DNA from: Escherichia coli
GTDB lineage: Bacteria > Pseudomonadota > Gammaproteobacteria > Enterobacterales > Enterobacteriaceae
DNA length: 64,000 nucleotides
Assembly: GCF_044324875.1 (NCBI RefSeq)
Contig: NZ_CP172185.1
Reading direction: 5' to 3' (one strand)
Every line of letters starts with the position of its first letter. Within the stretch, counting starts at the first letter, position 1. The notes beneath the pieces are model-generated. The model searched no databases, was not told where the DNA came from, and saw nothing but the letters and a program-made list of their open reading frames with translations. The position numbers and the translations under genes are program-made. This document shows positions 13,885 to 63,811 of this stretch, one piece after another.

Positions 13885-14035
13885 TCTGCGATTTATCATC
13901 GCAACCAAACGACTCGGGGTGCCCTTCTGCGTGAAGGCTGAGAAATACCCGTATCACCTGATCTGGATAATGCCAGCGTAGGGAAGTCACGGACCACCAG
14001 GTCATTGCTTCTTCACGTTATGGCAGGAGCAAACT
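13885..14035 (+). promoter_or_regulatory. TPP riboswitch (THI-box) in the thiM leader
   Basis: ggggtgcccttctgcgtgaaggctgagaaatacccgtatcacctgatctggataatgccagcgtagggaagtc (13916-13988) matches the thiM THI element; located directly upstream of thiM; 5' boundary approximate. Confidence 0.85.
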
Positions 14036-18241: not shown

Positions 18242-19242
18242 ACCGCCTCCCGTTGTTGACGATATTTCGCCAGCGCTGTGGCATAGCGGTTGAAATCAAG
18301 CTGATTTACCGCATCCAGCTCCGCCTTTAACGCAGGATCGATAGCGTTAATGCCATGCAACGCGCCGCAGATTGCCGTCGCCATAGCACCGATGGTGTCT
18401 GTATCGCCGCCAAGGTTAGCGCACAGGACGGCGCAACGGTTCGGGTCGGTTTGTGCCAGTTCAACCAGCGCAATGGCGCACGGAACGGACTCAATAGTGC
18501 TGGTACCTGCGCCAACGACCTGGTAAAGCTGTTCGCTGGCGGATTCAGTGCCGTCGGCATTGCGCACAATTTTCAGCGCAATCTCCAGCCGCGCCGCCAG
18601 TGAGGCGCTGAACGTGGTCGTGCGTTTTTGCTGTGCATGTTGCGCAATTGAAGGCAGTGAATCAACAATCGCTGACCAGCTTTCTCCGTCAATGGCACGA
18701 GAAATCGCCCATGCGATGACTACCGCACCTGCAACTGCCAGATCGGATTTATGGGTCGGGCTCGACGCCAGCGCCACATCATCAATAAAGGAATCAACAT
18801 CACGCGCCGGAAGCAAACAACCTAATGGCGAGACGCGCATCGCTGCGCCGTTGGTCACGCCGTTGTTTTCCAGTTCAGCAACGGGTTTACCGTCGCGAAT
18901 GGCGTTGAGAGCAATCTTCGAGGTCGGACCTAGTACGTTTTTGTTAAAGGCATCGAAACGCAGCGCCCAGTCGAGAATATTACGCCCAATCAGATCCGGA
19001 TCGATCTTGCCTTTACGTTCCAGTAACGCATCCGCCAGACACAGCGCCATCGAGGTATCGTCGGTGAATTCGGCGCGGTTAAAATAACAGGCCGCGTTAT
19101 TCTCCTTTGGTCCAGGCAGAAAATGGTCAATCCAGCCAAAGTGTGCTTTAACGCGGCTGCGTGGCCAAAGCTCGGAGGGCATCCCCATCGCATCCCCTAA
19201 CGCCTGCCCATAAAGAGCACCGAGAATACGTTCTGTTTTCAT
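18238..19242 (-). CDS. yegU: ADP-ribosylglycohydrolase-family protein
   Basis: 334-aa ORF; 4-nt overlap with yegV start and yegT stop (operon yegTUV). Confidence 0.85.
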   Translation of the reverse strand: MKTERILGALYGQALGDAMGMPSELWPRSRVKAHFGWIDHFLPGPKENNAACYFNRAEFTDDTSMALCLADALLERKGKIDPDLIGRNILDWALRFDAFNKNVLGPTSKIALNAIRDGKPVAELENNGVTNGAAMRVSPLGCLLPARDVDSFIDDVALASSPTHKSDLAVAGAVVIAWAISRAIDGESWSAIVDSLPSIAQHAQQKRTTTFSASLAARLEIALKIVRNADGTESASEQLYQVVGAGTSTIESVPCAIALVELAQTDPNRCAVLCANLGGDTDTIGAMATAICGALHGINAIDPALKAELDAVNQLDFNRYATALAKYRQQREAV

Positions 19243-20516
19243 TTAACTTCCCCTTGTGTCAACGCAATATCGCGATCATCGACCTTGATAGCCGTAATTT
19301 CGTTGTCGGATTCGCGGAAAAAAATCATGAACAGCACGGCGATAATGGCAATCATCACCGCGCCAAAAGTCCACATCCCGGACCAGTTGAAAGTCAGTCC
19401 GTTTACCGGTTCCTGATAAGCGAACATCTTTTCCATCATCACACCGCCAAGACGATAGCCGAGCAAACTGCCGAAGCCCTGGCAGCAGAGTGTGATCAGC
19501 CCCTGCGCGGCGGTACGCATATGCACGGGGGCTTTTTTATCGACATAGATGTAAGCGGTAACGTAGTAAAAATCGTAACTTACGCCGTGCAGCAAAATGC
19601 CGAGGAACAGTAACGCGTAGGTGAAATATTCATCCGCACTACCGTAAATAAAGAAGCCATAGCGGATCGCAGCGGTGACCAGACCAAGTAATAATACCTT
19701 TTTGATACCAAAGCGTTTGGTGAAAAACGGCAATGCCAGCATAAAGAAGATTTCAGAGAACTGGCCGAGCGTCATCCAGCCAGTGGCGTTTTTCATACCG
19801 ACTTCGGTCAGATAACCGTTGGCAAAGATGTAATAGAACGCCAGTGGCATCGCAAACAGGAATGAACAGAAGAAAAAGACGAGGAAGTTTTTATCGCGCA
19901 GCAGGATCAGCGCATCCAGGCCGAGCATGACTTTAATGTCCATTTTGCCGGTGCTTTTTGGCGGCGTGTCGGGCAGGAAAAACGCAAACACACCGAGCAG
20001 AGCAGAACTTCAGGCGGTAATCAGCAGCGGGATGTTAGTCGGAGAGATATCGGCATAACCCAGCATTTGCGGCAAAAATCCACATGCAAGACCGGAGGCA
20101 ATCCAGCCGATAGTGCCCATCACACGAATGCGTGGGAAATCACGCTCCACATCCGGCACGTTGGCAAAAGCGATACTGTTAGTCAGCGCAATGGTCGGCA
20201 TATAGGTTAGCGAGTAGGCCAGCAGTAACGGGAAGAACCCGGCAAAAGTGGTCTGTTGCGCAGCGAAATACATCAACGCCGCACCAGCGAACATCAATAC
20301 CGCCAGCACTTTCTGCGCCGAGAAAAAGCGGTCAGTGATGGAGCCAACCAGAATTGGCGACAGGATCGCCGCAATGGCGGTACAGGCATACGACCAGCCA
20401 ATTTCTCCGGCACTAAAACCGCTTTTACTTAACCACAACCACAATGGCACAAACCACGCGCCCCAGATAAACCATTCAACAAACATCATGAACGACAGCT
20501 TTGCTGTTGTTTTCAT
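19239..20516 (-). pseudogene. yegT: Nucleoside:H+ symporter-family transporter yegT, interrupted by an in-frame TGA
   Basis: Two same-frame ORFs (20010..20516, 168 aa; 19239..19991, 250 aa) separated by TGA (plus-strand tca at 20010-20012); translation reads ...PLLITA*SSALLGVFAFFLPDTPPK... Confidence 0.75.
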
Positions 20517-21998: not shown

Positions 21999-24198
<2,200 letters not shown>

Positions 24199-24207
24199 GG
24201 ACGGTAT

Positions 24208-24660
24208 ATGACTAACCTGTTTGTTCGTAGCGGAATTTCTTTTGTCGATCGTAGCGAAGTTTTAACCCATATCGGTAATGAGATGCTCGCGAAAGGTGTG
24301 GTTCATGATACATGGCCACAGGCATTAATTGCCAGAGAAGCAGAATTCCCTACCGGGATAATGCTTGAGCAGCACGCCATTGCAATACCGCATTGTGAGG
24401 CGATTCATGCTAAGTCGTCAGCCATTTATCTGTTAAGGCCAACAAATAAAGTTCATTTTCAGCAAGCGGATGATGATAACGACGTGGCGGTATCGTTGGT
24501 TATTGCGTTAATTGTGGAAAATCCGCAGCAGCAATTGAAACTTTTACGCTGTTTATTTGGCAAGTTACAACAGCCCGAGATCGTCGAGACACTAATCACT
24601 CTTCCTGAAACCCAGTTAAAGGAATACTTCACAAAGTATGTTTTAGATTCAGACGAATAA
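24208..24660 (+). CDS. gatA: PTS galactitol-specific EIIA
   Basis: 150-aa ORF, operon position. Confidence 0.9.
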   Translation: MTNLFVRSGISFVDRSEVLTHIGNEMLAKGVVHDTWPQALIAREAEFPTGIMLEQHAIAIPHCEAIHAKSSAIYLLRPTNKVHFQQADDDNDVAVSLVIALIVENPQQQLKLLRCLFGKLQQPEIVETLITLPETQLKEYFTKYVLDSDE

Positions 24661-24690
24661 ATCCCTCTGTAACAATAAAAAGGACTATTT

Positions 24691-24975
24691 ATGAAACGCA
24701 AGATTATTGTCGCTTGCGGAGGCGCGGTTGCGACCTCTACGATGGCGGCGGAAGAAATTAAAGAGTTGTGTCAGAGTCATAATATTCCTGTTGAATTAAT
24801 CCAGTGTCGGGTTAATGAAATAGAAACCTATATGGATGGCGTGCATTTGATATGCACCACTGCCAGGGTGGATCGAAGTTTTGGCGATATTCCGTTAGTT
24901 CACGGCATGCCTTTTGTTTCTGGTGTCGGTATCGAAGCATTACAAAATAAAATTCTGACTATCTTACAGGGGTGA
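24691..24975 (+). CDS. gatB: PTS galactitol-specific EIIB
   Basis: 94-aa ORF with N-terminal Cys ([11 protein letters not shown]). Confidence 0.9.
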
Positions 24976-24978
24976 CCT

Positions 24979-26334
24979 ATGTTTTCAGAAGTCATGCGTT
25001 ATATTCTCGACCTCGGCCCTACGGTGATGCTGCCAATTGTCATCATTATTTTTTCTAAAATATTAGGCATGAAGGCAGGCGATTGCTTTAAAGCGGGTCT
25101 GCATATCGGGATTGGCTTTGTTGGCATTGGCCTTGTGATTGGCTTAATGCTGGATTCCATTGGTCCGGCGGCGAAAGCGATGGCGGAAAATTTCGACCTG
25201 AATCTGCATGTGGTCGATGTCGGTTGGCCGGGCTCTTCACCAATGACCTGGGCGTCGCAAATTGCGCTGGTGGCGATTCCGATTGCGATTCTGGTTAACG
25301 TGGCGATGCTACTGACCCGTATGACGCGGGTGGTAAATGTTGATATCTGGAATATCTGGCATATGACCTTCACCGGCGCATTGCTGCATCTGGCAACCGG
25401 TTCATGGATGATAGGGATGGCGGGTGTGGTAATTCACGCGGCGTTTGTTTATAAGCTCGGCGACTGGTTTGCCCGCGATACCCGAAATTTCTTTGAGCTG
25501 GAAGGCATTGCTATTCCGCACGGTACGTCGGCGTATCTGGGGCCAATTGCGGTGCTGGTGGATGCTATCATCGAGAAAATCCCAGGCGTTAACCGTATTA
25601 AATTTAGCGCCGACGATATTCAGCGCAAATTTGGTCCGTTTGGCGAGCCTGTCACCGTGGGTTTTGTGATGGGGCTGATTATCGGCATCCTCGCGGGTTA
25701 CGATGTCAAAGGTGTATTGCAGCTGGCGGTAAAAACGGCGGCAGTTATGCTGCTGATGCCACGGGTGATTAAACCCATCATGGATGGTTTAACGCCTATC
25801 GCTAAGCAGGCCCGTAGTCGTTTACAGGCGAAGTTCGGCGGTCAGGAGTTCCTGATTGGCCTTGATCCGGCGTTGCTGCTGGGGCATACGGCGGTGGTAT
25901 CGGCAAGCCTGATTTTTATCCCGCTCACCATTTTAATTGCTGTTTGTGTTCCGGGTAATCAGGTACTGCCGTTTGGCGACCTTGCCACCATCGGTTTCTT
26001 TGTGGCGATGGCGGTCGCCGTGCATCGTGGAAATCTGTTCCGCACCTTAATCTCGGGTGTCATCATTATGAGCATCACCCTGTGGATCGCGACGCAAACT
26101 ATTGGTTTGCACACCCAACTGGCGGCTAACGCTGGGGCGTTAAAAGCCGGAGGCATGGTGGCATCAATGGATCAGGGCGGTTCTCCCATTACCTGGTTAC
26201 TGATTCAGGTTTTCTCCCCGCAAAATATTCCCGGTTTCATTATTATCGGTGCCATTTATCTTACCGGTATTTTCATGACCTGGCGTAGAGCGCGCGGCTT
26301 TATTAAACAAGAGAAAGCCGTTCTCGCAGAATAA
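24979..26334 (+). CDS. gatC: PTS galactitol-specific EIIC permease
   Basis: 451-aa polytopic membrane protein. Confidence 0.92.
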   Translation: MFSEVMRYILDLGPTVMLPIVIIIFSKILGMKAGDCFKAGLHIGIGFVGIGLVIGLMLDSIGPAAKAMAENFDLNLHVVDVGWPGSSPMTWASQIALVAIPIAILVNVAMLLTRMTRVVNVDIWNIWHMTFTGALLHLATGSWMIGMAGVVIHAAFVYKLGDWFARDTRNFFELEGIAIPHGTSAYLGPIAVLVDAIIEKIPGVNRIKFSADDIQRKFGPFGEPVTVGFVMGLIIGILAGYDVKGVLQLAVKTAAVMLLMPRVIKPIMDGLTPIAKQARSRLQAKFGGQEFLIGLDPALLLGHTAVVSASLIFIPLTILIAVCVPGNQVLPFGDLATIGFFVAMAVAVHRGNLFRTLISGVIIMSITLWIATQTIGLHTQLAANAGALKAGGMVASMDQGGSPITWLLIQVFSPQNIPGFIIIGAIYLTGIFMTWRRARGFIKQEKAVLAE

Positions 26335-26499
26335 TTTTTACCTGAGGGGGAGTTTATCCCCCTTAATAATCAGGAGTTTTTATGAAATCAGTGGTGAATG
26401 ATACTGATGGTATCGTGCGCGTTGCCCAACGAGTCATTCCTGAAATTAAACATCAGGATGAGGTGCGGGTAAAAATTGCCAGCTCGGGATTATGTGGTT

Positions 26500-26508
26500 C
26501 CGATTTAC
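26500..26508. repeat. IS1 target-site duplication (left copy), ccgatttac
   Basis: Identical 9-mer abuts both IS1 termini. Confidence 0.9.
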
Positions 26509-26523
26509 GGTAATGACTCCAAC

Positions 26524-27027
26524 TTATTGATAGTGTTTTATGTTCAGATAATGCCCGATGACTTTGTCATGCAGCTCCACCGATTTTGAGAACGACAGCG
26601 ACTTCCGTCCCAGCCGTGCCAGGTGCTGCCTCAGATTCAGGTTATGCCGCTCAATTCGCTGCGTATATCGCTTGCTGATTACGTGCAGCTTTCCCTTCAG
26701 GCGGGATTCATACAGTGGCCAGCCATCCGTCATCCATATCACCACGTCAAAGGGTGACAGCAGGCTCATAAGACGCCCCAGCGTCGCCATAGTGCGTTCA
26801 CCGAATACGTGCGCAACAACCGTCTTCCGGAGCCTGTCATACGCGTAAAACAGCCAGCGCTGGCGCGATTTAGCCCCGACATAGCCCCACTGTTCGTCCA
26901 TTTCCGCGCAGACGATGACGTCACTGCCCGGCTGTATGCGCGAGGTTACCGACTGCGGCCTGAGTTTTTTAAGTGACGTAAAATCGTGTTGAGGCCAACG
27001 CCCATAATGCGGGCAGTTGCCCGGCAT
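26524..27027 (-). CDS. insB: IS1 transposase InsB (expressed as InsAB' fusion by -1 frameshift)
   Basis: 167-aa [61 protein letters not shown]... Confidence 0.93.
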
Positions 27028-27221
27028 CCAACGCCATTCATGGCCATATCAATGATTTTCTGGTGCGTACCGGGTTGAGAAGCGGTGTAAGTGAACTGCA
27101 GTTGCCATGTTTTACGGCAGTGAGAGCAGAGATAGCGCTGATGTCCGGCGGTGCTTTTGCCGTTACGCACCACCCCGTCAGTAGCTGAACAGGAGGGACA
27201 GCTGATAGAAACAGAAGCCAC
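26946..27221 (-). CDS. insA: IS1 InsA (transposition inhibitor / N-terminal part of transposase)
   Basis: 91-aa [45 protein letters not shown]... (zinc finger). Confidence 0.93.
26964..26970 (-). promoter_or_regulatory. IS1 programmed -1 ribosomal frameshift motif (A6C)
   Basis: Minus-strand ttaaaaaactc at the insA/insB overlap (plus-strand gtttttt). Confidence 0.7.
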
Positions 27222-27276
27222 TGGAGCACCTCAAAAACACCATCATACACTAAATCAGTAAGTTGGCAGCATCACC

Positions 27277-27285
27277 CCGATTTAC
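27277..27285. repeat. IS1 target-site duplication (right copy), ccgatttac
   Basis: Identical to 26500-26508. Confidence 0.9.
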
Positions 27286-28298
27286 CCAGAATATTTAAAA
27301 ATGGTGCACATTATTATCCAATAACGTTAGGCCATGAATTTAGCGGCTATATTGATGCTGTGGGATCCGGTGTTGATGATTTACATCCTGGCGATGCGGT
27401 TGCCTGTGTGCCGTTATTACCCTGTTTTACTTGTCCAGAGTGTTTGAAAGGGTTTTATTCCCAGTGCGCAAGATATGATTTTATTGGCTCGCGGCGTGAT
27501 GGTGGATTTGCTGAGTATATTGTCGTTAACCGAAAAAATGTCTTTGCTCTACCCACGGATATGCCTATTGAGGATGGGGCTTTTATTGAACCGATTACCG
27601 TTGGCCTGCATGCTTTCCATTTAGCGCAAGGTTGTGAGAATAAAAACGTTATTATTATTGGTGCCGGAACCATTGGCCTGCTGGCCATTCAGTGCGCTGT
27701 CGCGCTGGGAGCAAAGAGTGTGACGGCTATCGACATTAGCTCAGAAAAACTGGCACTGGCAAAATCTTTCGGTGCGATGCAAACATTTAACAGCCTTGAA
27801 ATGAGCGCGCCGCAAATGCAGAGCGTTTTACGCGAACTGCGTTTTAATCAGCTTATCCTCGAGACGGCTGGCGTCCCGCAAACCGTCGAACTGGCGGTAG
27901 AGATTGCCGGGCCTCATGCCCAGCTGGCGCTGGTGGGCACGTTGCATCAGGATCTGCATTTAACATCGGCAACGTTTGGCAAAATATTGCGTAAAGAGCT
28001 GACGGTTATCGGCAGTTGGATGAACTACTCCAGCCCTTGGCCGGGGCAGGAGTGGGAAACGGCGTGCCGGTTGCTGACAGAACGTAAGTTAAGCCTGGAG
28101 CCATTAATCGCTTACCGTGGAAGCTTTGAAAGCTTCGCCCAGGCGGTGCGTGACATCGCTCGTAATGCTATGCCGGGCAAAGTGTTGCTCATTCCCTGAA
28201 ACCGCGGGCCAGCGTGATGCTGGCCCGGTATTGTGCAAAACAGATCATTCACCAATGGTCCCCCTTCGTTTACACTAGCCACAATTGAATATGGGTAA

Positions 28299-29078
28299 AT
28301 GACGATGAATTCATTCGAGCGAAGGAATAAGATCATCCAATTAGTGAATGAACAGGGAACCGTGCTTGTTCAGGATCTGGCGGGAGTATTTGCTGCCTCG
28401 GAAGCGACAATCCGTGCCGATTTGCGCTTTCTCGAACAAAAAGGCGTGGTTACGCGCTTTCATGGCGGTGCGGCGAAAATAATGTCCGGTAATAGTGAAA
28501 CCGAGACCCAGGAAGTTGGGTTTAAAGAGCGATTTCAGCTCGCCAGCGCGCCAAAAAACAGAATAGCGCAGGCGGCAGTCAAAATGATCCACGAAGGGAT
28601 GACCGTTATTCTCGACAGCGGAAGTACGACAATGCTTATCGCCGAAGGATTAATGACCGCCAAAAATATCACGGTGATTACCAACAGTCTCCCGGCAGCA
28701 TTTGCCCTTTCCGAAAATAAAGACATTACTCTGGTCGTCTGTGGTGGGACCGTCCGCCATAAAACACGCTCGATGCATGGTTCCATTGCCGAGCGTTCAT
28801 TGCAGGATATTAATGCCGATTTAATGTTTGTCGGTGCTGATGGTATTGATGCGGTTAATGGTATTACGACCTTTAATGAAGGTTATTCGATTAGCGGGGC
28901 GATGGTTATAGCCGCAAATAAAGTGATTGCCGTTCTCGATTCATCGAAATTTAATCGTCGCGGTTTTAATCAGGTACTGCCAATCGAAAAAATTGACATT
29001 ATTATTACCGATGATGCCGTGTCAGAGGTGGATAAACTGGCATTGCAGAAGACACGGGTGAAATTAATTACGGTGTAG
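28299..29078 (+). CDS. gatR: DeoR-family repressor of the gat operon, apparently intact
   Basis: 259-aa uninterrupted ORF with N-terminal DeoR HTH and C-terminal sugar-binding domain. Confidence 0.85.
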   Translation: MTMNSFERRNKIIQLVNEQGTVLVQDLAGVFAASEATIRADLRFLEQKGVVTRFHGGAAKIMSGNSETETQEVGFKERFQLASAPKNRIAQAAVKMIHEGMTVILDSGSTTMLIAEGLMTAKNITVITNSLPAAFALSENKDITLVVCGGTVRHKTRSMHGSIAERSLQDINADLMFVGADGIDAVNGITTFNEGYSISGAMVIAANKVIAVLDSSKFNRRGFNQVLPIEKIDIIITDDAVSEVDKLALQKTRVKLITV

Positions 29079-29159: not shown

Positions 29160-30059
29160 TTAACGCAACAATGGGCAATCTGGTGGTAATCGACAACGCA
29201 ACGCCGCCGGAAGTATTTCAATATGAAAGTTTTGTCCGCTCAACGGTTCGCCATCAAGATTAAAAGTGATTTCGTGTGGGGCTTGTATATCAAACCACGA
29301 CGAAGCGCCTTCGATAATATTCGGGTTATCTTCGTCAGATTTTAATGTTGATACGAGAGCCGGAAGAATTTCATCGCCGGTAAAAATGCGCAGTTGCAGC
29401 AAGCCATCGTTAATTAACGCGTTCGGGCACAATTGCTGACCGCCACCGGCCTGACGCCCGTTACCAATACCAATGACCAGGGCGTCACCTTGCCAGTGAA
29501 AGTTTTCACCGCGGATCTCACAACGGTCCGGTTGCAGAGTATCCATGCGCATTAAGCCATGAATGATGTAAGAGACGCCACCCAGCGCGGCTTTTAATTT
29601 TTCCGGCGTTTCTGTGGTAATACGCGTCCCAAATCCGCCTGTCGCCATATTAATAAAACAGGTTTGTTTGTTGACCTGCGCCATATCTATCGCAATGGCG
29701 TCACCGGCAATTGCCAGTTTCAGCGCCTTATCCAGTGCCTCAGGAATCCTTACACTGGTGGCAAAATCATTGGCGGTTCCTAATGGCAAAATTCCTAGCG
29801 CGGGTATGTCATCCCCCTCACACTGAATCAACGCCGTAGAAACTTCATTAATGGTGCCATCGCCACCACCGGCAATCACCGTTGCGACGCCCAACTTCCG
29901 GGCCTCCTCTACATATCGTGCGGCATCGCCTTTCTCCCAGGTGACCCGCACATGGATCGTCATTCCTTCCTCACGCAACAGCATAATTGCTTCGCGCAAT
30001 GGTAAATTGTCAGTACTTTTGCCATTAAGAATCAGTAAGCTGGCGGGAAATTCTGCCAT
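29160..30059 (-). CDS. yegS: Lipid kinase YegS (DAG-kinase catalytic domain family)
   Basis: 299-aa ORF; GGDGT motif ([12 protein letters not shown]). Confidence 0.9.
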
Positions 30060-30961: not shown

Positions 30962-31048
30962 AAAAAATAAGCCCGTGTAAGGGAGATTACACAGGCTAAG
31001 GAGGTGGTTCCTGGTACAGCTAGCATTTTATGGGTTATGTTTTTCAGC
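30962..31048 (-). ncRNA. cyaR: CyaR (RyeE) Hfq-dependent sRNA
   Basis: Minus-strand sequence gctgaaaaacataacccataaaatgctagctgtaccaggaaccacctccttagcctgtgtaatctcccttacacgggcttatttttt matches CyaR as I remember it, including the terminator hairpin and U-tail. Confidence 0.9.
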
Positions 31049-31079
31049 GAAACAGATGATAACCTTAATAAATGCAGCT

Positions 31080-31132: not shown

Positions 31133-32494
31133 TCACTTACCGTGGGGGTTACGCGTGGTTTCCCCGGAGAAATTACGCATCAGCAGCGCGTAATTTAGCT
31201 CAAGATCCTGCGGCACCGGGATCCACACAGTATAACCATCGCCCGGTGCGACCGGCATTGCTTCGCCTTTGGCGTTTTCCATGTGCTCAAGGGTAAAGTT
31301 AATGTTCCCTTGCGGCGTCATCAGCTCAAGGCTGTCGCCAACGGAGAATTTATTTTTCACCGCTACCGCCGCGAGGTCGCCCTTGCGCTCACTGGTAAAC
31401 TCACCAACAAACTGCTGGCGGTCAGAAACTGAATAACCGTATTCGTAGTTCTGATAATCGTCGTGAGTATGACGACGCAGGAAACCTTCGGTATAGCCAC
31501 GATGCGCCAGACCTTCCAGGGTTTCCAGCAGGCTGGTATCGAATGGTTTTCCCGCAGCTGCGTCATCGATAGCTTTACGGTAAACCTGCGCGGTGCGTGC
31601 GCAATAGTAGAAAGATTTGGTACGGCCTTCGATTTTCAGCGAATGCACGCCCATTTTGGTCAGGCGTTCAACATGGGCGATGGCGCGCAGATCTTTCGAG
31701 TTCATGATGTAAGTGCCGTGCTCATCTTCAAACGCGGTCATATACTCGCCCGGACGCTGGGCTTCTTCGATCATAAACACTTTGTCGGTTGGTGCGCCGA
31801 TCCCCAGCGTCGGTTCAACGTTTTGCACCGGAATCGGTTCGTACTTGTGTACGATGTTGCCGACGTCATCTTCTTTCCCTTCCTGGACGTTATACTCCCA
31901 GCGGCAGGCGTTGGTGCAGGTGCCCTGGTTCGGGTCGCGCTTGTTGATATAGCCAGAGAGCAGGCAGCGACCGGAGTAGGCCATGCACAGCGCGCCGTGA
32001 ACGAAGATTTCGATCTCCATATCTGGCACCTGATTGCGGATCTCTTCAATCTCTTCCAGTGACAGTTCGCGAGAGAGGATCACGCGGGTCAGACCCATTT
32101 GCTGCCAGAATTTCACCGTCGCCCAGTTCACGGCGTTAGCCTGTACTGAGAGATGGATCGGCATTTCAGGGAAGTGCTCGCGCACCAGCATAATCAGCCC
32201 TGGATCAGACATAATCAGCGCATCCGGCCCCATTTCCACCACCGGTTTCAGGTCACGGATAAAGGTTTTCAGCTTGGCGTTGTGCGGTGCAATGTTGACC
32301 ACGACATAAAACTTTTTCCCCAGCGCGTGGGCTTCATTGATGCCGAGCTGAAGATTTTCGTGGTTAAATTCGTTGTTGCGCACACGCAGGGAGTAACGCG
32401 GCTGGCCCGCATAAACAGCATCTGCGCCATAAGCGAAAGCGTAACGCATATTTTTCAGCGTTCCCGCCGGGGAAAGGAGTTCCGGTTTAAACAT
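31133..32494 (-). CDS. yegQ: Peptidase U32-family protein
   Basis: 453-aa ORF MFKPELLSPAGTLKNMRYAFAYGADAVYAGQPRYSLR... Confidence 0.9.
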   Translation of the reverse strand: MFKPELLSPAGTLKNMRYAFAYGADAVYAGQPRYSLRVRNNEFNHENLQLGINEAHALGKKFYVVVNIAPHNAKLKTFIRDLKPVVEMGPDALIMSDPGLIMLVREHFPEMPIHLSVQANAVNWATVKFWQQMGLTRVILSRELSLEEIEEIRNQVPDMEIEIFVHGALCMAYSGRCLLSGYINKRDPNQGTCTNACRWEYNVQEGKEDDVGNIVHKYEPIPVQNVEPTLGIGAPTDKVFMIEEAQRPGEYMTAFEDEHGTYIMNSKDLRAIAHVERLTKMGVHSLKIEGRTKSFYYCARTAQVYRKAIDDAAAGKPFDTSLLETLEGLAHRGYTEGFLRRHTHDDYQNYEYGYSVSDRQQFVGEFTSERKGDLAAVAVKNKFSVGDSLELMTPQGNINFTLEHMENAKGEAMPVAPGDGYTVWIPVPQDLELNYALLMRNFSGETTRNPHGK

Positions 32495-32695: not shown

Positions 32696-33301
32696 ATGTG
32701 GATGTTAAAGAAGGGAATCACGCTGGCTCTGTTGGTTCTGTTTTCTCTGCCCGCTACTGCCGGTCTTTCGCTGGAGGAGACTGCTCGTAAGGTGATTATC
32801 GGCTTTCAGCAAAAAGATGCTCAATTAATCAACTCGTTAATTGATAAAAAAACGGGGTTGTATGTTCTCTTCCAGCGTGGCGCTTCGATGGATGTCGAAA
32901 ATTTTAAGTCAATTGATTTTAAAACGCCTGTTCCCGAGTATTTGCTGTGGCCTTCGGCAGGGGAACATATTCCGCGAGATGAAGAGTTTGATAAGAAAAC
33001 TATCCCGGAATTTGACTGTGAACGTGGCTGGAATAAGCACGGATATTTTATTAGCAGCAGCGATACACACCATAAAGTCAGCCGTAATTTGGTCTTCACG
33101 CAGATGTTTGGTTCACCGCGAAACACTATTTCTGATGCGCAGATTGCCGCAGCGCGTCGAATGGAGTACGGGGCCGTGCGTGTGGTCGCTGCGCCAGAAG
33201 GGGGTAGCGATGGACTGGTATTTTATTTAAGTCAACTTTACGGTTATGACCGTGACTGGTATCTGACGGTGGTGGATCAGATTGGTGATTGTGGGGCGTG
33301 A
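32696..33301 (+). CDS. Hypothetical secreted protein (201 aa), unknown function
   Basis: Strong RBS aaggag 7 nt upstream; predicted Sec signal peptide MWMLKKGITLALLVLFSLPATA; two Cys in mature part; not recognised as a K-12 gene. Confidence 0.6.
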   Translation: MWMLKKGITLALLVLFSLPATAGLSLEETARKVIIGFQQKDAQLINSLIDKKTGLYVLFQRGASMDVENFKSIDFKTPVPEYLLWPSAGEHIPRDEEFDKKTIPEFDCERGWNKHGYFISSSDTHHKVSRNLVFTQMFGSPRNTISDAQIAAARRMEYGAVRVVAAPEGGSDGLVFYLSQLYGYDRDWYLTVVDQIGDCGA

Positions 33302-33331
33302 TAAAGATTTATTCGCCCGCAAGCAGTGATG

Positions 33332-34732
33332 CTATTTAAAAGGTATGTAACCCCTTAATCTGTTGTGAAGTTCCGGATTGCGGGTAAAAAGCGCCTGAAG
33401 TTGCTGACGCTGAAGAGCATTCGGTTGAATGCCCGAAAGATTGAAATTGCGTTGCCATATCGCGAGCTGTTTACCTGCAAATTCTTCAGTTAGCTTGTGT
33501 TGCGATTGCAGAAGAAGAATTAAACCGTCCCATTTGTTCAAGTTATGATACAACCGACAATATGCGCAAGCATGTTTAACTGACGGTGCGTTTTCCAGCA
33601 ACTGACGTATTTCCTCGAACGTGAGCGGAACTCGACACCATACACAGATGTTAACCATAAATCGAAGCCCGGAGGCGTCCGGGTTAGCTAGTGTGGTCAG
33701 AATAATCCCTTTGACACCACCATCAGGATTGGCTTTCGCAAGAATATACATAGCGGCTAATCGCAGTGGGAATACATCCTGTGATAATCCCCATTCAGCC
33801 AGTTTTAAAATATTGGCATCATGAATGGAGTCCAGCCCGTATAAAGCTGCCCGGCGCTGTGAGGGAGTATATTCAGTCGAGGTGACAACATGACGCCAGA
33901 ATTGCGCAACATCCATGACGTCATTAAGCATGTTTTTAGCGCGTAGACGGATCAACATATTGTTATCCAGCAGTAATGCGCTGTACAGAGCCGGAGGAAT
34001 TTCTATAGCTCGGTCAGTAAGGCTAAACAACGTTGCTTGTCGAATACGCGGCCAGCGGTCTTTTAACAGACGAGTTAATACCGCTTCGCTTAACGATAAT
34101 TGTTGACGCAGCCAGTGGGTGACTGCCAGCATTCGTAAACCTTCGTCGGGCTGCTTGAGTATTAAAAGCAGCGAAGATTCATCATTAAAGTAGCCATATT
34201 CAATCAGCGTTTGTAATACTGCGCGGGAAAGTTTTTTATCAGGGCAAGTAAGCCAGCACGTTAATTGCGGGCGGTTATTTTCTTCCAGCAAGAAGCTCAG
34301 TATCTCGTTTACAAATGCACGATGATCGTAACGCTGGCATTGGAGAAGGTTACGTATCATGGGAAGATTAACCGCAAATGCCGCTGCATTCTTATCCTTC
34401 TTTAAATGACGTAACGCTATGGTTGCAGCAAGGCGAACCTCTTTTACCCAGTCATTAGCTGCAAGTAATAATTCTTCTATAGCTGCAACATCCTCTTTTT
34501 GTCCCAGACATTGCACGGCCTTTTCTCGTATATATCCATTGTGGTGATGGGTAAGCTGGCAAAGAACCAGAGTATCGTTGAGATCACAATCATGCGCTAT
34601 ATAATTGCCTGGATCGGCTATCATCGCCTGGAGTTGTTGCTGGATAAGAAATAATTCACAGTCAACAGAATTATTCATTTCGACGTTAAACAAAACCCTG
34701 CGTGTAAATAATGTACGCAATCCTTTGAGCAT
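33332..34732 (-). CDS. Hypothetical cytoplasmic protein (466 aa) with HEAT/armadillo-like repeats, unknown function
   Basis: Long ORF with recurring alpha-helical repeat motifs (IREKAVQCLGQ, VRLAATIALRHL, LRMLAVTHWL, QRRAALYGLDSI, LRLAAMYILAKA); aagga RBS; no nucleotide-binding motifs seen. Confidence 0.6.
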   Translation of the reverse strand: MLKGLRTLFTRRVLFNVEMNNSVDCELFLIQQQLQAMIADPGNYIAHDCDLNDTLVLCQLTHHHNGYIREKAVQCLGQKEDVAAIEELLLAANDWVKEVRLAATIALRHLKKDKNAAAFAVNLPMIRNLLQCQRYDHRAFVNEILSFLLEENNRPQLTCWLTCPDKKLSRAVLQTLIEYGYFNDESSLLLILKQPDEGLRMLAVTHWLRQQLSLSEAVLTRLLKDRWPRIRQATLFSLTDRAIEIPPALYSALLLDNNMLIRLRAKNMLNDVMDVAQFWRHVVTSTEYTPSQRRAALYGLDSIHDANILKLAEWGLSQDVFPLRLAAMYILAKANPDGGVKGIILTTLANPDASGLRFMVNICVWCRVPLTFEEIRQLLENAPSVKHACAYCRLYHNLNKWDGLILLLQSQHKLTEEFAGKQLAIWQRNFNLSGIQPNALQRQQLQALFTRNPELHNRLRGYIPFK

Positions 34733-46579: not shown

Positions 46580-46720
46580 AACGGGAAAGCCCCTCCCGAG
46601 GAAGGGGCCTTAAATAAGGAAAGGGTCATGATGAAGTGGATCATCATCGTGGTGCTCTTAGTGATTAGCTACCCAGCATACTAAGACTACCAGGGCGGGG
46701 GAAACCCCGCTCTACCCTCA
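46580..46720 (-). ncRNA. Putative Sib antisense sRNA, copy 1 (antitoxin of the overlapping ibs)
   Basis: Minus-strand promoter ttgaca-17-tacttt (weaker -10 than copies 2 and 3); terminator hairpin gcccct...aggggc then tttcccgttt; boundaries approximate. Confidence 0.45.
46628..46684 (+). CDS. Ibs-family small hydrophobic toxin, variant MMKWIIIVVLLVISYPAY (copy 1)
   Basis: 18-codon ORF at the same position in the repeat unit as the other two ibs genes. Confidence 0.6.
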   Translation: MMKWIIIVVLLVISYPAY

Positions 46721-46907
46721 CTCCTGAAAGTATGCCTTCACGATAAGATTGTCAATCTGCAGGCTTTGCAGTCTGCGATCCTGCCAGCAAATATTCTTTG
46801 CGAGACGTTACGCAATAATCACACTGGAAACTATTTTATCCGCAAGTCAGCGATAGACTGCATACAGGGCGAAAGGAGGTAAGTCGACGATTTCAGCGGG
46901 ACGCTGA

Positions 46908-47048
46908 AACGGGAAAGCCCCTCCCGAGGAAGGGGCCTTAAATAAGGAAAGGGTCATGATGAAGCTACTCATCATCGTGGTGCTCTTAGTCATAAGCTTC
47001 CCCGCTTACTAAGACTACCAGGGCGGGGGAAACCCCGCTCTACCCTCA
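46908..47048 (-). ncRNA. sibB: Putative Sib antisense sRNA, copy 2 (SibB-like)
   Basis: Minus-strand promoter ttgaca-17-taattt (-35 at 47078-47083, -10 at 47055-47060); terminator hairpin 46917-46936; boundaries approximate. Confidence 0.55.
46956..47012 (+). CDS. ibsB: Ibs-family small toxin MMKLLIIVVLLVISFPAY (IbsB-like)
   Basis: 18-codon ORF; matches my recollection of IbsB. Confidence 0.65.
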   Translation: MMKLLIIVVLLVISFPAY

Positions 47049-47237
47049 CTCCTGAAATTATGCCTTCACGATAAGATTGTCAATCCGCAGGCTTTGCAGT
47101 CTGCGATCCTGCCAGCAAATATTCTTTGCGAGTCGTTACGCAATAATCACAGAGGAAACTATTTTGTTCACGCGTTAGCGATAGACTGCATTCAGGGCGA
47201 AAGGAGGTAAGCCGACGATTTCAGCGGGACGCTGAAA

Positions 47238-47383
47238 CGGGAAACCCTCTCCCGGAGAAGAGGGCTTTTAATAAGGAAAGGGTTATGATGAAGCACGTCA
47301 TCATACTGGTGATACTCTTAGTGATTAGCTTCCAGGCTTACTAAGAACACCAGGGGGAGGGGGAAACCTCTCCCTAACCCTCA
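47238..47383 (-). ncRNA. sibA: Putative Sib antisense sRNA, copy 3 (SibA-like)
   Basis: Minus-strand promoter ttgaca-17-taattt (-35 at 47413-47418, -10 at 47390-47395); terminator hairpin ccctct...agaggg then tttcccgttt; boundaries approximate. Confidence 0.55.
47285..47344 (+). CDS. ibsA: Ibs-family small toxin MMKHVIILVILLVISFQAY (IbsA-like)
   Basis: 19-codon ORF. Confidence 0.65.
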   Translation: MMKHVIILVILLVISFQAY

Positions 47384-47564
47384 CTCCTGAAATTATGTCA
47401 CTCCGCCCTTAGTGTCAATCGACGGCTCTCCGTTCTTGCGAGGCGAATAGCAAAATTTTCTGCGCCGCCGGGCCTAATTCTGAAAGTTGCTTTGCCTGCT
47501 CATATTTCATTGTTGCAGTCGGTATGATACCGGACCTCAATAATTCTCTAAGAAAGGATTTCTT

Positions 47565-62013: not shown

Positions 62014-62481
62014 AGTAAGTACAAAACCTATTCGTTGTATGACAAATGTCACAATTCGATCATGGATAAATCGGGGCAAAAATGCAATGTTGCAGCACTA
62101 TTTATCTCATATTATTTGAGGGTAATAACCTCACATTATCCCTGAATTAAAAGTGGTAATAATAAAATATTATTTAAGAAATATCGCATGTGGAGACGCA
62201 ATATTAAATATTGTCAACCTAAAGAAACTCCTAAAAACCATATTGAATGACACTTAATATAATTCTTAAAAATAGCCAATTGCCGAATTGTTACCTTGCC
62301 TGCTATTCCGTTAGCTGTAACACTTCCTCCTGCATTATTGGAGAGCCAATATTCAATTACCATAATGTCACCTTATATTCGGAAGTTAATTTCCGTAATA
62401 ACCCTTTCTCATCAACGACTGCATGCTGAGAGGGTGTGAAAAATTAAACTAAATCAGTGTATTGGTAGCTAAAAAGCCAGG

Positions 62482-62493
62482 GGCGGTAGCGTG
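62482..62493 (+). promoter_or_regulatory. ops element (RfaH recruitment site) within a JUMPstart sequence upstream of wza
   Basis: ggcggtagcgtg matches ops consensus GGCGGTAGnnTG; in the long 5' leader of the colanic acid cluster. Confidence 0.8.
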
Positions 62494-62671: not shown

Positions 62672-63811
62672 ATGATGAAATCCAAAATGAAATTGATGCC
62701 ATTATTGGTGTCAGTAACCTTGATAAGCGGTTGCACAGTACTTCCGGGCAGCAATATGTCGACGATGGGTAAAGACGTCATCAAACAGCAGGACGCTGAT
62801 TTCGATCTCGACAAAATGGTGAATGTTTATCCGTTGACCCCGCGCCTGATTGATCAATTACGTCCACGACCCAATGTAGCGCGCCCCAATATGACGCTGG
62901 AAAGTGAGATCGCGAATTACCAGTATCGCGTCGGGCCGGGGGACGTTCTTAATGTCACCGTCTGGGATCACCCGGAACTCACCACGCCAGCCGGTCAGTA
63001 CCGCAGCTCCAGCGACACCGGCAACTGGGTACAGCCTGACGGCACTATGTTTTATCCGTATATCGGCAAAGTTCACGTGGTGGGGAAAACGCTCGCTGAA
63101 ATCCGCAGTGATATTACCGGGCGCTTAGCGACGTACATCGCTGACCCGCAGGTGGACGTTAATATCGCCGCCTTCCGCTCGCAAAAAGCCTATATCTCCG
63201 GCCAGGTGAATAAATCCGGCCAACAGGCGATCACCAACGTGCCACTGACCATTCTCGACGCCATCAACGCCGCAGGTGGCCTGACCGACACCGCTGACTG
63301 GCGCAACGTGGTGTTAACACACAATGGTCGTGAAGAACGCATTTCATTGCAGGCGCTGATGCAAAACGGCGACCTCAATCAGAATCGACTGCTTTATCCT
63401 GGCGATATTCTCTACGTGCCGCGTAATGATGATCTGAAAGTGTTTGTGATGGGTGAAGTGAAGAAACAGAGCACCCTGAAAATGGACTTTAGCGGCATGA
63501 CCCTGACTGAAGCCCTTGGTAATGCTGAAGGCATCGACATGACCACCTCCAACGCCAGCGGCATCTTTGTCATTCGTCCGCTGAAAGGCGAGGGTGGGCG
63601 TAACGGCAAGATTGCCAATATCTACCAGCTGGATATGTCCGATGCCACGTCGCTGGTGATGGCGACAGAATTCCGCCTGCAACCTTATGACGTGGTGTAT
63701 GTCACCACCGCACCGGTTTCCCGCTGGAACCGTCTGATCAATCAGTTGCTGCCAACTATTAGCGGTGTCCGTTACATGACGGATACAGCCAGCGACATTC
63801 ATAACTGGTAA
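62672..63811 (+). CDS. wza: Outer membrane polysaccharide export lipoprotein Wza
   Basis: 379-aa ORF; lipobox LISGC; first gene of colanic acid cluster. Confidence 0.93.

Follow-up and report, generated by a model that had tools for sequence, protein, structure and literature searches.

The gatD gene of the Escherichia coli genome considered here (assembly GCF_044324875.1, contig NZ_CP172185.1) is interrupted by a complete copy of the insertion sequence IS1, and there is little doubt that the arrangement arose by a simple IS1 transposition yielding the null allele gatD::IS1. The stretch of DNA analysed, 64,000 nucleotides in length, is hereafter referred to as the window. On this view, the present E. 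coli clone descends from an ancestor in which one IS1 of the IS1A type moved into the AT-rich 5' region of gatD, leaving the usual 9-bp target duplication and the null allele. The initial annotation of the window had described a full-length IS1 with intact insA and insB' and an A6C motif, splitting gatD after codon 42 between perfect 9-bp direct repeats, and had considered the event to be recent; these observations are upheld by the structure of the element, its junctions and the two halves of the gene.

Base-for-base reading resolves positions 26500-27285 into 9, 768 and 9 bases, corresponding to one copy of the target-site duplication, the IS1 and the second copy of the duplication. The element (26509-27276) lies on the minus strand, such that insA and insB' are read leftward, antiparallel to gatD. 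Its insB-proximal right inverted repeat (26509-26531, plus strand; GGTAATGACTCCAACTTATTGAT) is an exact match to the IS1 end consensus, which starts with GGTRATG, and the insA-proximal left inverted repeat (27254-27276, minus strand; GGTGATGCTGCCAACTTACTGAT) is likewise an exact match. These are the only two matches to the consensus in the 64 kb, against none in 100 shuffled sequences, and they pair as a 23-nt imperfect inverted repeat with arms that are 78% complementary. A promoter-like site inside the left end (27269-27242, minus strand) reads into insA (27221-26946, minus strand; 91 amino acids), the A6C motif TTAAAAAAC that marks the programmed -1 frameshift site is found at 26972-26964 (minus strand), and an open insB frame extends over 27027-26524 on the same strand. 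In-silico fusion of insA and insB' through the -1 frameshift gives an InsAB' transposase of 232 amino acids (26524-27221, minus strand), identical at all 232 positions to the IS1A transposase of plasmid NZ_CP031136, annotated as the RefSeq protein WP_103215986.1, and scoring 245 bits against the NCBIfam IS1 transposase model NF033558 (cut-off 100). At the DNA level, 767 of the 768 bases (99.9%) are shared with the plasmid copy, the only substitution being silent (T at 26716, C in the plasmid), and copies at least 99% identical to the element occur on at least 4,969 plasmids. Length, ends, insA-A6C-insB' layout, transposase model and target-site duplication (8-10 bp, usually 9) are all those of the IS1 family, and the window copy resembles IS1A/IS1R in its 768 bp, 23-nt ends, insA/A6C/insB' organisation and 9-bp duplication, with position 26716 as the sole difference. 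The element is, to judge from its sequence, a standard IS1A and apparently functional; it would keep all the parts needed for renewed movement, namely both ends, insA, the A6C site and an open insB' frame.

The duplicated target CCGATTTAC is present at 26500-26508 and as a perfect repeat at 27277-27285; two given positions would agree in all nine bases by chance with a probability of approximately 4^-9, or 4e-6. A comparison with related strains for the empty site, as proposed in the initial annotation, showed that relatives including XJ6.1 (L004) and GCA_900449655.1 (L008) possess an uninterrupted gatD with one CCGATTTAC, the sequence being single-copy in L004 and in L008-L011. The DNA of XJ6.1, GCA_900449655.1 and others with the empty site aligns to both flanks of the window with an overlap of nine bases, with nothing gained or missing. 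The insertion site has a GC content of 0.42-0.45 in comparison with 0.51-0.56 nearby and is the most AT-rich part of gatD. IS1 prefers AT-rich targets, and the low GC content of the site fits this preference.

The gatD frame is thus not continuous in the window, being split at nt 127, that is, after 42 codons plus one base of codon 43. The 5' fragment (26382-26508, plus strand; 127 nt) continues into IS1 as far as a stop codon at 26511-26513, giving a stub of 43 amino acids which ends in ...GSDLR and retains Cys38 of the GLCGSD motif. The 3' fragment (27286-28199, plus strand) comprises nt 128-1041 plus the stop codon. There is no start before codon 68; the first in-frame start is a GTG at 27360, from which a product of 279 amino acids would begin, without residues 1-67 and consequently without Cys38 and the GHE motif (residues 58-60). 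It is near certain that no active enzyme is made, because only a 43-residue stub and a C-terminal part deprived of its start remain, and on this reading gatD is a pseudogene, the null allele gatD::IS1, in this genome.

Removal in silico of IS1 and one copy of the repeat restores an open reading frame of 1,041 nt encoding a GatD of 346 amino acids with no other lesion. The rejoined protein scores 719.7 bits against NF007642, the equivalog model for galactitol-1-phosphate 5-dehydrogenase (cut-off 550), and matches the solved E. coli enzyme, PDB 4a2c, with an E-value of 8.9e-230 and 339 of 346 residues identical (98%, seven substitutions). Exactly the same 346-residue protein is recorded in 3,523 blocks of a public protein-position index and is therefore a very common E. 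coli allele. The rejoined gatD DNA is identical to that of GCA_900449655.1, and the window differs from this genome by one mismatch from 23382 to about 28000, which indicates that gatD has not decayed since the insertion. The single silent difference in IS1, the perfect duplication and the halves of gatD that rejoin without other damage support an insertion that would be recent in evolutionary terms.

The surroundings of the gat locus were also surveyed. The nucleoside permease gene yegT (19239-20516, minus strand) carries a stop at 20010-20012 in place of codon 169, which specifies Gly in XJ6.1, and is split into open reading frames of 168 and 250 amino acids, constituting a second pseudogene of the lineage, 6 kb from gatD. 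The window as a whole has a mosaic make-up: even the best-matching complete E. coli genomes reach no more than 97.7-98.0% identity over 22-25 kb. In comparison with XJ6.1, 0-3 mismatches per kb are found at 19-23, 29-30 and 31-32 kb and a difference of 2-4% at 33-50 kb, while the stretch from gatZ to gatD is approximately 100% identical to GCA_900449655.1, with divergence beginning after about 28 kb. The full 24.7-kb query is covered by two complete genomes only (XJ6.1 and JNEC-KY178), most others standing at 97%. Such a pattern would fit recombination near the colanic-acid/O-antigen region. Between mdtA and yegL lies a type I toxin-antitoxin array in triplicate, in which SIB antitoxin RNAs, three in tandem (46613-47418, minus strand; 139-150 bits), match three ibs toxin genes annotated in XJ6.1. 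The interval 32696-34732 between yegQ and yegP encodes a hypothetical protein of 201 amino acids and a HEAT-repeat protein of 466 amino acids, according to the annotation of XJ6.1. A TPP riboswitch (13905-14001, plus strand) ahead of thiM/thiD-like open reading frames, the CyaR sRNA (30965-31050, minus strand) between the yegQ open reading frame (31133-32494) and yegS (29160-30059), and a JUMPstart element (62455-62493, plus strand) ahead of an open reading frame of 379 amino acids (62672-63811), at what looks like the start of the colanic-acid cluster, are expected features of E. coli.

Insertion of IS1 into gatD is a recurrent event in the species. Of 5,426 complete E. coli genomes in RefSeq, not one has the exact gatD junction of the window; 19 of them carry IS1 elsewhere in gatD, through nine or more independent insertions. 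Those in the same orientation lie at nt 160, 289, 352, 489 and 538 with duplications of 8-9 bp, read directly, and those in the opposite orientation at about nt 355, 418, 480 and 592, as estimated from the match spans. The carriers, which include H32/648/Ec-2977, OXA-181, ET791, ST540, SY033, FORC 064, NCTC9080 and others, share element and gene with the window and differ in the position of the insertion (nt 160-592 against nt 127). RefSeq labels the IS1-split halves as partial pseudogenes, 'alcohol dehydrogenase catalytic domain-containing protein' and 'zinc-binding dehydrogenase'. When gatC was searched as a control, IS1 was found at about seven sites; the carriers number about 15 genomes, among them the K-12 laboratory strains TG1 and NEB Turbo. 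Because this rate is similar, there is no sign of gatD being special. In NEB Turbo and TG1 (among L021-L023), IS1 lies at nt 74 of gatC with the 9-bp duplication CATTATTTT, and the pig isolate CUPS TF 6/1_01 has both an IS1 in gatC and an internal stop in gatA; the gat operon has been eroded repeatedly by IS1 in natural as well as laboratory strains. There is nothing unfamiliar about the element, the disrupted gene or the kind of event; the exact position is novel only in comparison with complete genomes, public drafts already contain it, and gatD::IS1 is a routine IS-mediated pseudogene.

The gatC gene of the window also contains a sequence, GGTGATGCTGCCAA (25023-25036, plus strand), which reproduces the 14 bases at the start of the IS1 left end, with none expected in shuffled sequences. 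K-12 gatC has GGTGATGCTGCCGA instead, so the look-alike is not conserved. It was considered as a possible cause of IS1 targeting and rejected, being absent from K-12 and probably a chance resemblance. The gatC insertions of other strains, at nt 74, 104 and 137, sit in an AT-rich stretch just downstream of the look-alike, and the preference of IS1 for AT-rich DNA is therefore a sufficient explanation.

IS1 is a multi-copy element, found at a median of 10 places in an E. coli genome, and such repeats are a classic source of misjoins; an IS1 from elsewhere might accordingly have been misplaced by the assembly into a gatD that is in truth uninterrupted, a chimera which the initial annotation had itself named as the alternative. 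A misjoin, however, would not place perfect 9-bp copies of a sequence on both sides of the element when the empty site has just one, and the junction recurs in other data. The 43-residue stub, which is encoded only if IS1 sits exactly at this site of gatD, served as the probe, and the left junction turned up on 10 contigs in public NCBI and Logan short-read assemblies of near-identical genomes, namely those of GCA_958308375.1, SRR21142071, SRR21141939, ERR4843518 and SRR8502404 and five more. These independent contigs show the identical gatD-IS1 left junction and enter IS1 by 28-125 bases before they end, as short-read assemblies do at repeats. The carrier contigs examined match the window at 99.96-100% identity along as much as 10 kb. 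In the parts of this stretch compared at 1-kb resolution, the difference between the window and XJ6.1 is 0 to about 4%, and two of the carriers (L017 and L018) share the split of yegT with the window. Exact-junction scans gave no match to the left junction among the GTDB species representatives and none to the right junction in the JGI metagenomes; outside the window, the right junction was not encountered in any assembly searched, a point in favour of an artefact. A search with the 279-residue product returned one metagenome contig of 1.5 kb (L012) with noisy first bases, in which the junction is not displayed. Since ten contigs of near-identical genomes share the left junction, the allele is clonal and the chimera is ruled out for practical purposes, its probability being negligible; going by these assemblies, the insertion is fixed in a clone that several projects have sampled and is not private to this isolate. 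A different concern is that more than a simple insertion took place, the IS1 being the border of a larger IS1-mediated event (composite transposon, adjacent deletion or inversion). IS1 often causes adjacent deletions, and several other E. coli genomes carry IS1 beside a shortened gat region (gatZ, IS1, gatC), but the window contains one IS1 in 64 kb with the duplication intact and flanks colinear with the empty-site genomes, which leaves scarcely any room for such an event. A Tn9-like composite transposon was rejected on finding one pair of ends in the 64 kb and no second IS1, and an adjacent deletion on the colinearity of both flanks with the empty sites. An origin from Shigella, brought to mind by the IS1 and the divergence of about 2% from complete E. 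coli genomes, likewise found no support, there being one IS1 in the 64 kb and no further ends, neighbouring genes of normal length except yegT, and E. coli as the nearest relatives.

The insertion could also have been selected for a regulatory effect, either through a hybrid promoter which raises the expression of gatR or as a switch reversible by precise excision. IS1 ends can create hybrid promoters, and a promoter-like site, TTGGCA-18-CAGAAT (27263-27292, plus strand), does span the junction, taking its -35 TTGGCA from the IS1 left end and its -10 CAGAAT from gatD, and facing the 3' fragment of gatD and gatR. Extra transcription of gatR would then hold the operon off and shield a cell without GatD from poisoning by galactitol-1-phosphate. 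The site is a weak lead, as it scores 9 of 12 against the consensus, its spacer being 18 nt, and shuffled sequences contain such sites at least as often as the region does. For the switch, the perfect repeats and the otherwise intact gatD would in principle permit reversion, IS1 insertions in gatD recur in nature and reversible gat phenotypes have been selected in the mouse gut; gatD::IS1 alleles would in that case be maintained as reversible off-switches for the use of galactitol in the gut. The other gatD insertions are, however, scattered and in both orientations, a pattern of simple knockouts, and insertions in gatD are about as frequent as those in gatC. A selected or regulatory insertion is therefore regarded as very unlikely, and the simple transposition resulting in a null allele remains the preferred reading.

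The insertion leaves the remainder of the gat locus untouched. The genes gatY, gatZ, gatA, gatB and gatC (22047-26334, plus strand) are full length with open reading frames of 286, 420, 150, 94 and 451 amino acids, the same gene lengths as in the empty-site relatives. Their products are the subunits of tagatose-bisphosphate aldolase and components IIA, IIB and IIC of the galactitol PTS, with NCBIfam matches that exceed the curated cut-offs. gatD is the last gene of gatYZABCD and is followed by gatR (28299-29078, plus strand), which encodes the intact DeoR-family gat repressor of 259 amino acids, identified by its family model and also present in XJ6.1 and L008-L011. Between gatY with its promoter region and the corresponding DNA of XJ6.1, in which the operon is intact, 0-1 base difference per kb is found. 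The prediction in the initial annotation that gatD is lost while gatABC remain is borne out at the level of the sequence by the full-length open reading frames and the family models, and the upstream transporter genes are spared from polarity because gatD is last in the operon.

Near-certain loss of GatD activity may be predicted from these data, and with the dehydrogenase gone a galactitol (dulcitol)-negative strain is therefore expected, which would almost certainly neither grow on galactitol nor ferment it. About 60% of E. coli ferment dulcitol, according to a quoted table. With gatR intact, galactitol would induce the operon and the PTS would still import and phosphorylate the sugar, so that galactitol-1-phosphate, left without an outlet, would build up and probably slow growth. 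Sugar-phosphate toxicity is a general phenomenon on which the claim of galactitol sensitivity is based, and the sensitivity of gatD mutants reportedly goes back to the genetics of Lengeler in the 1970s. A full-text literature search returned no direct statement that gatD mutants are galactitol-sensitive, and the galactitol sensitivity expected in the initial annotation, through the build-up of galactitol-1-phosphate, is plausible for the present clone.

Evolution experiments in the mouse gut offer a useful comparison. In constitutive K-12, galactitol inhibits growth, and the gat mutations selected in the gut affect the gatY regulatory region, gatZ, gatA and gatC (Barroso-Batista et al. 2014, PMC3945185; Sousa et al. 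2017, PMC5850726), with gatB in another study; gatD is not mentioned among those selected in K-12. This spectrum of mutations would fit with a loss of gatD that does not relieve the toxicity. IS insertions render the K-12 strains of these experiments gat-negative, as is predicted for the strain of the window, and the gat operon is a recurrent target of IS elements (PMC3945185, PMC5850726). The K-12 operon is, however, constitutive through disruption of gatR and the mutations remove transport, whereas in the window gatR is intact and the last, non-transport gene is split. The gatR::IS allele of MG1655 is similarly a case in which a single IS in the gat locus alters galactitol physiology; MG1655 lacks the repressor and runs the pathway constitutively, while in the window the dehydrogenase is lost and the repressor kept.

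In strains that retain GatR any sensitivity does not seem to be strongly counter-selected, because IS1-split gatD is about as frequent as IS1-split gatC, and in natural strains with an intact repressor any cost of the loss of gatD is conditional on meeting galactitol. The persistence of a knockout that spares uptake is a puzzle, for which maybe gatR keeps the operon off or galactitol is rarely met. The clone described here should be dulcitol/galactitol-negative, and the allele would therefore be usable as a PCR or biochemical marker of the lineage. With respect to the biology of E. coli, the allele is one more data point for a known pattern, the textbook erosion of optional catabolic operons by IS1.
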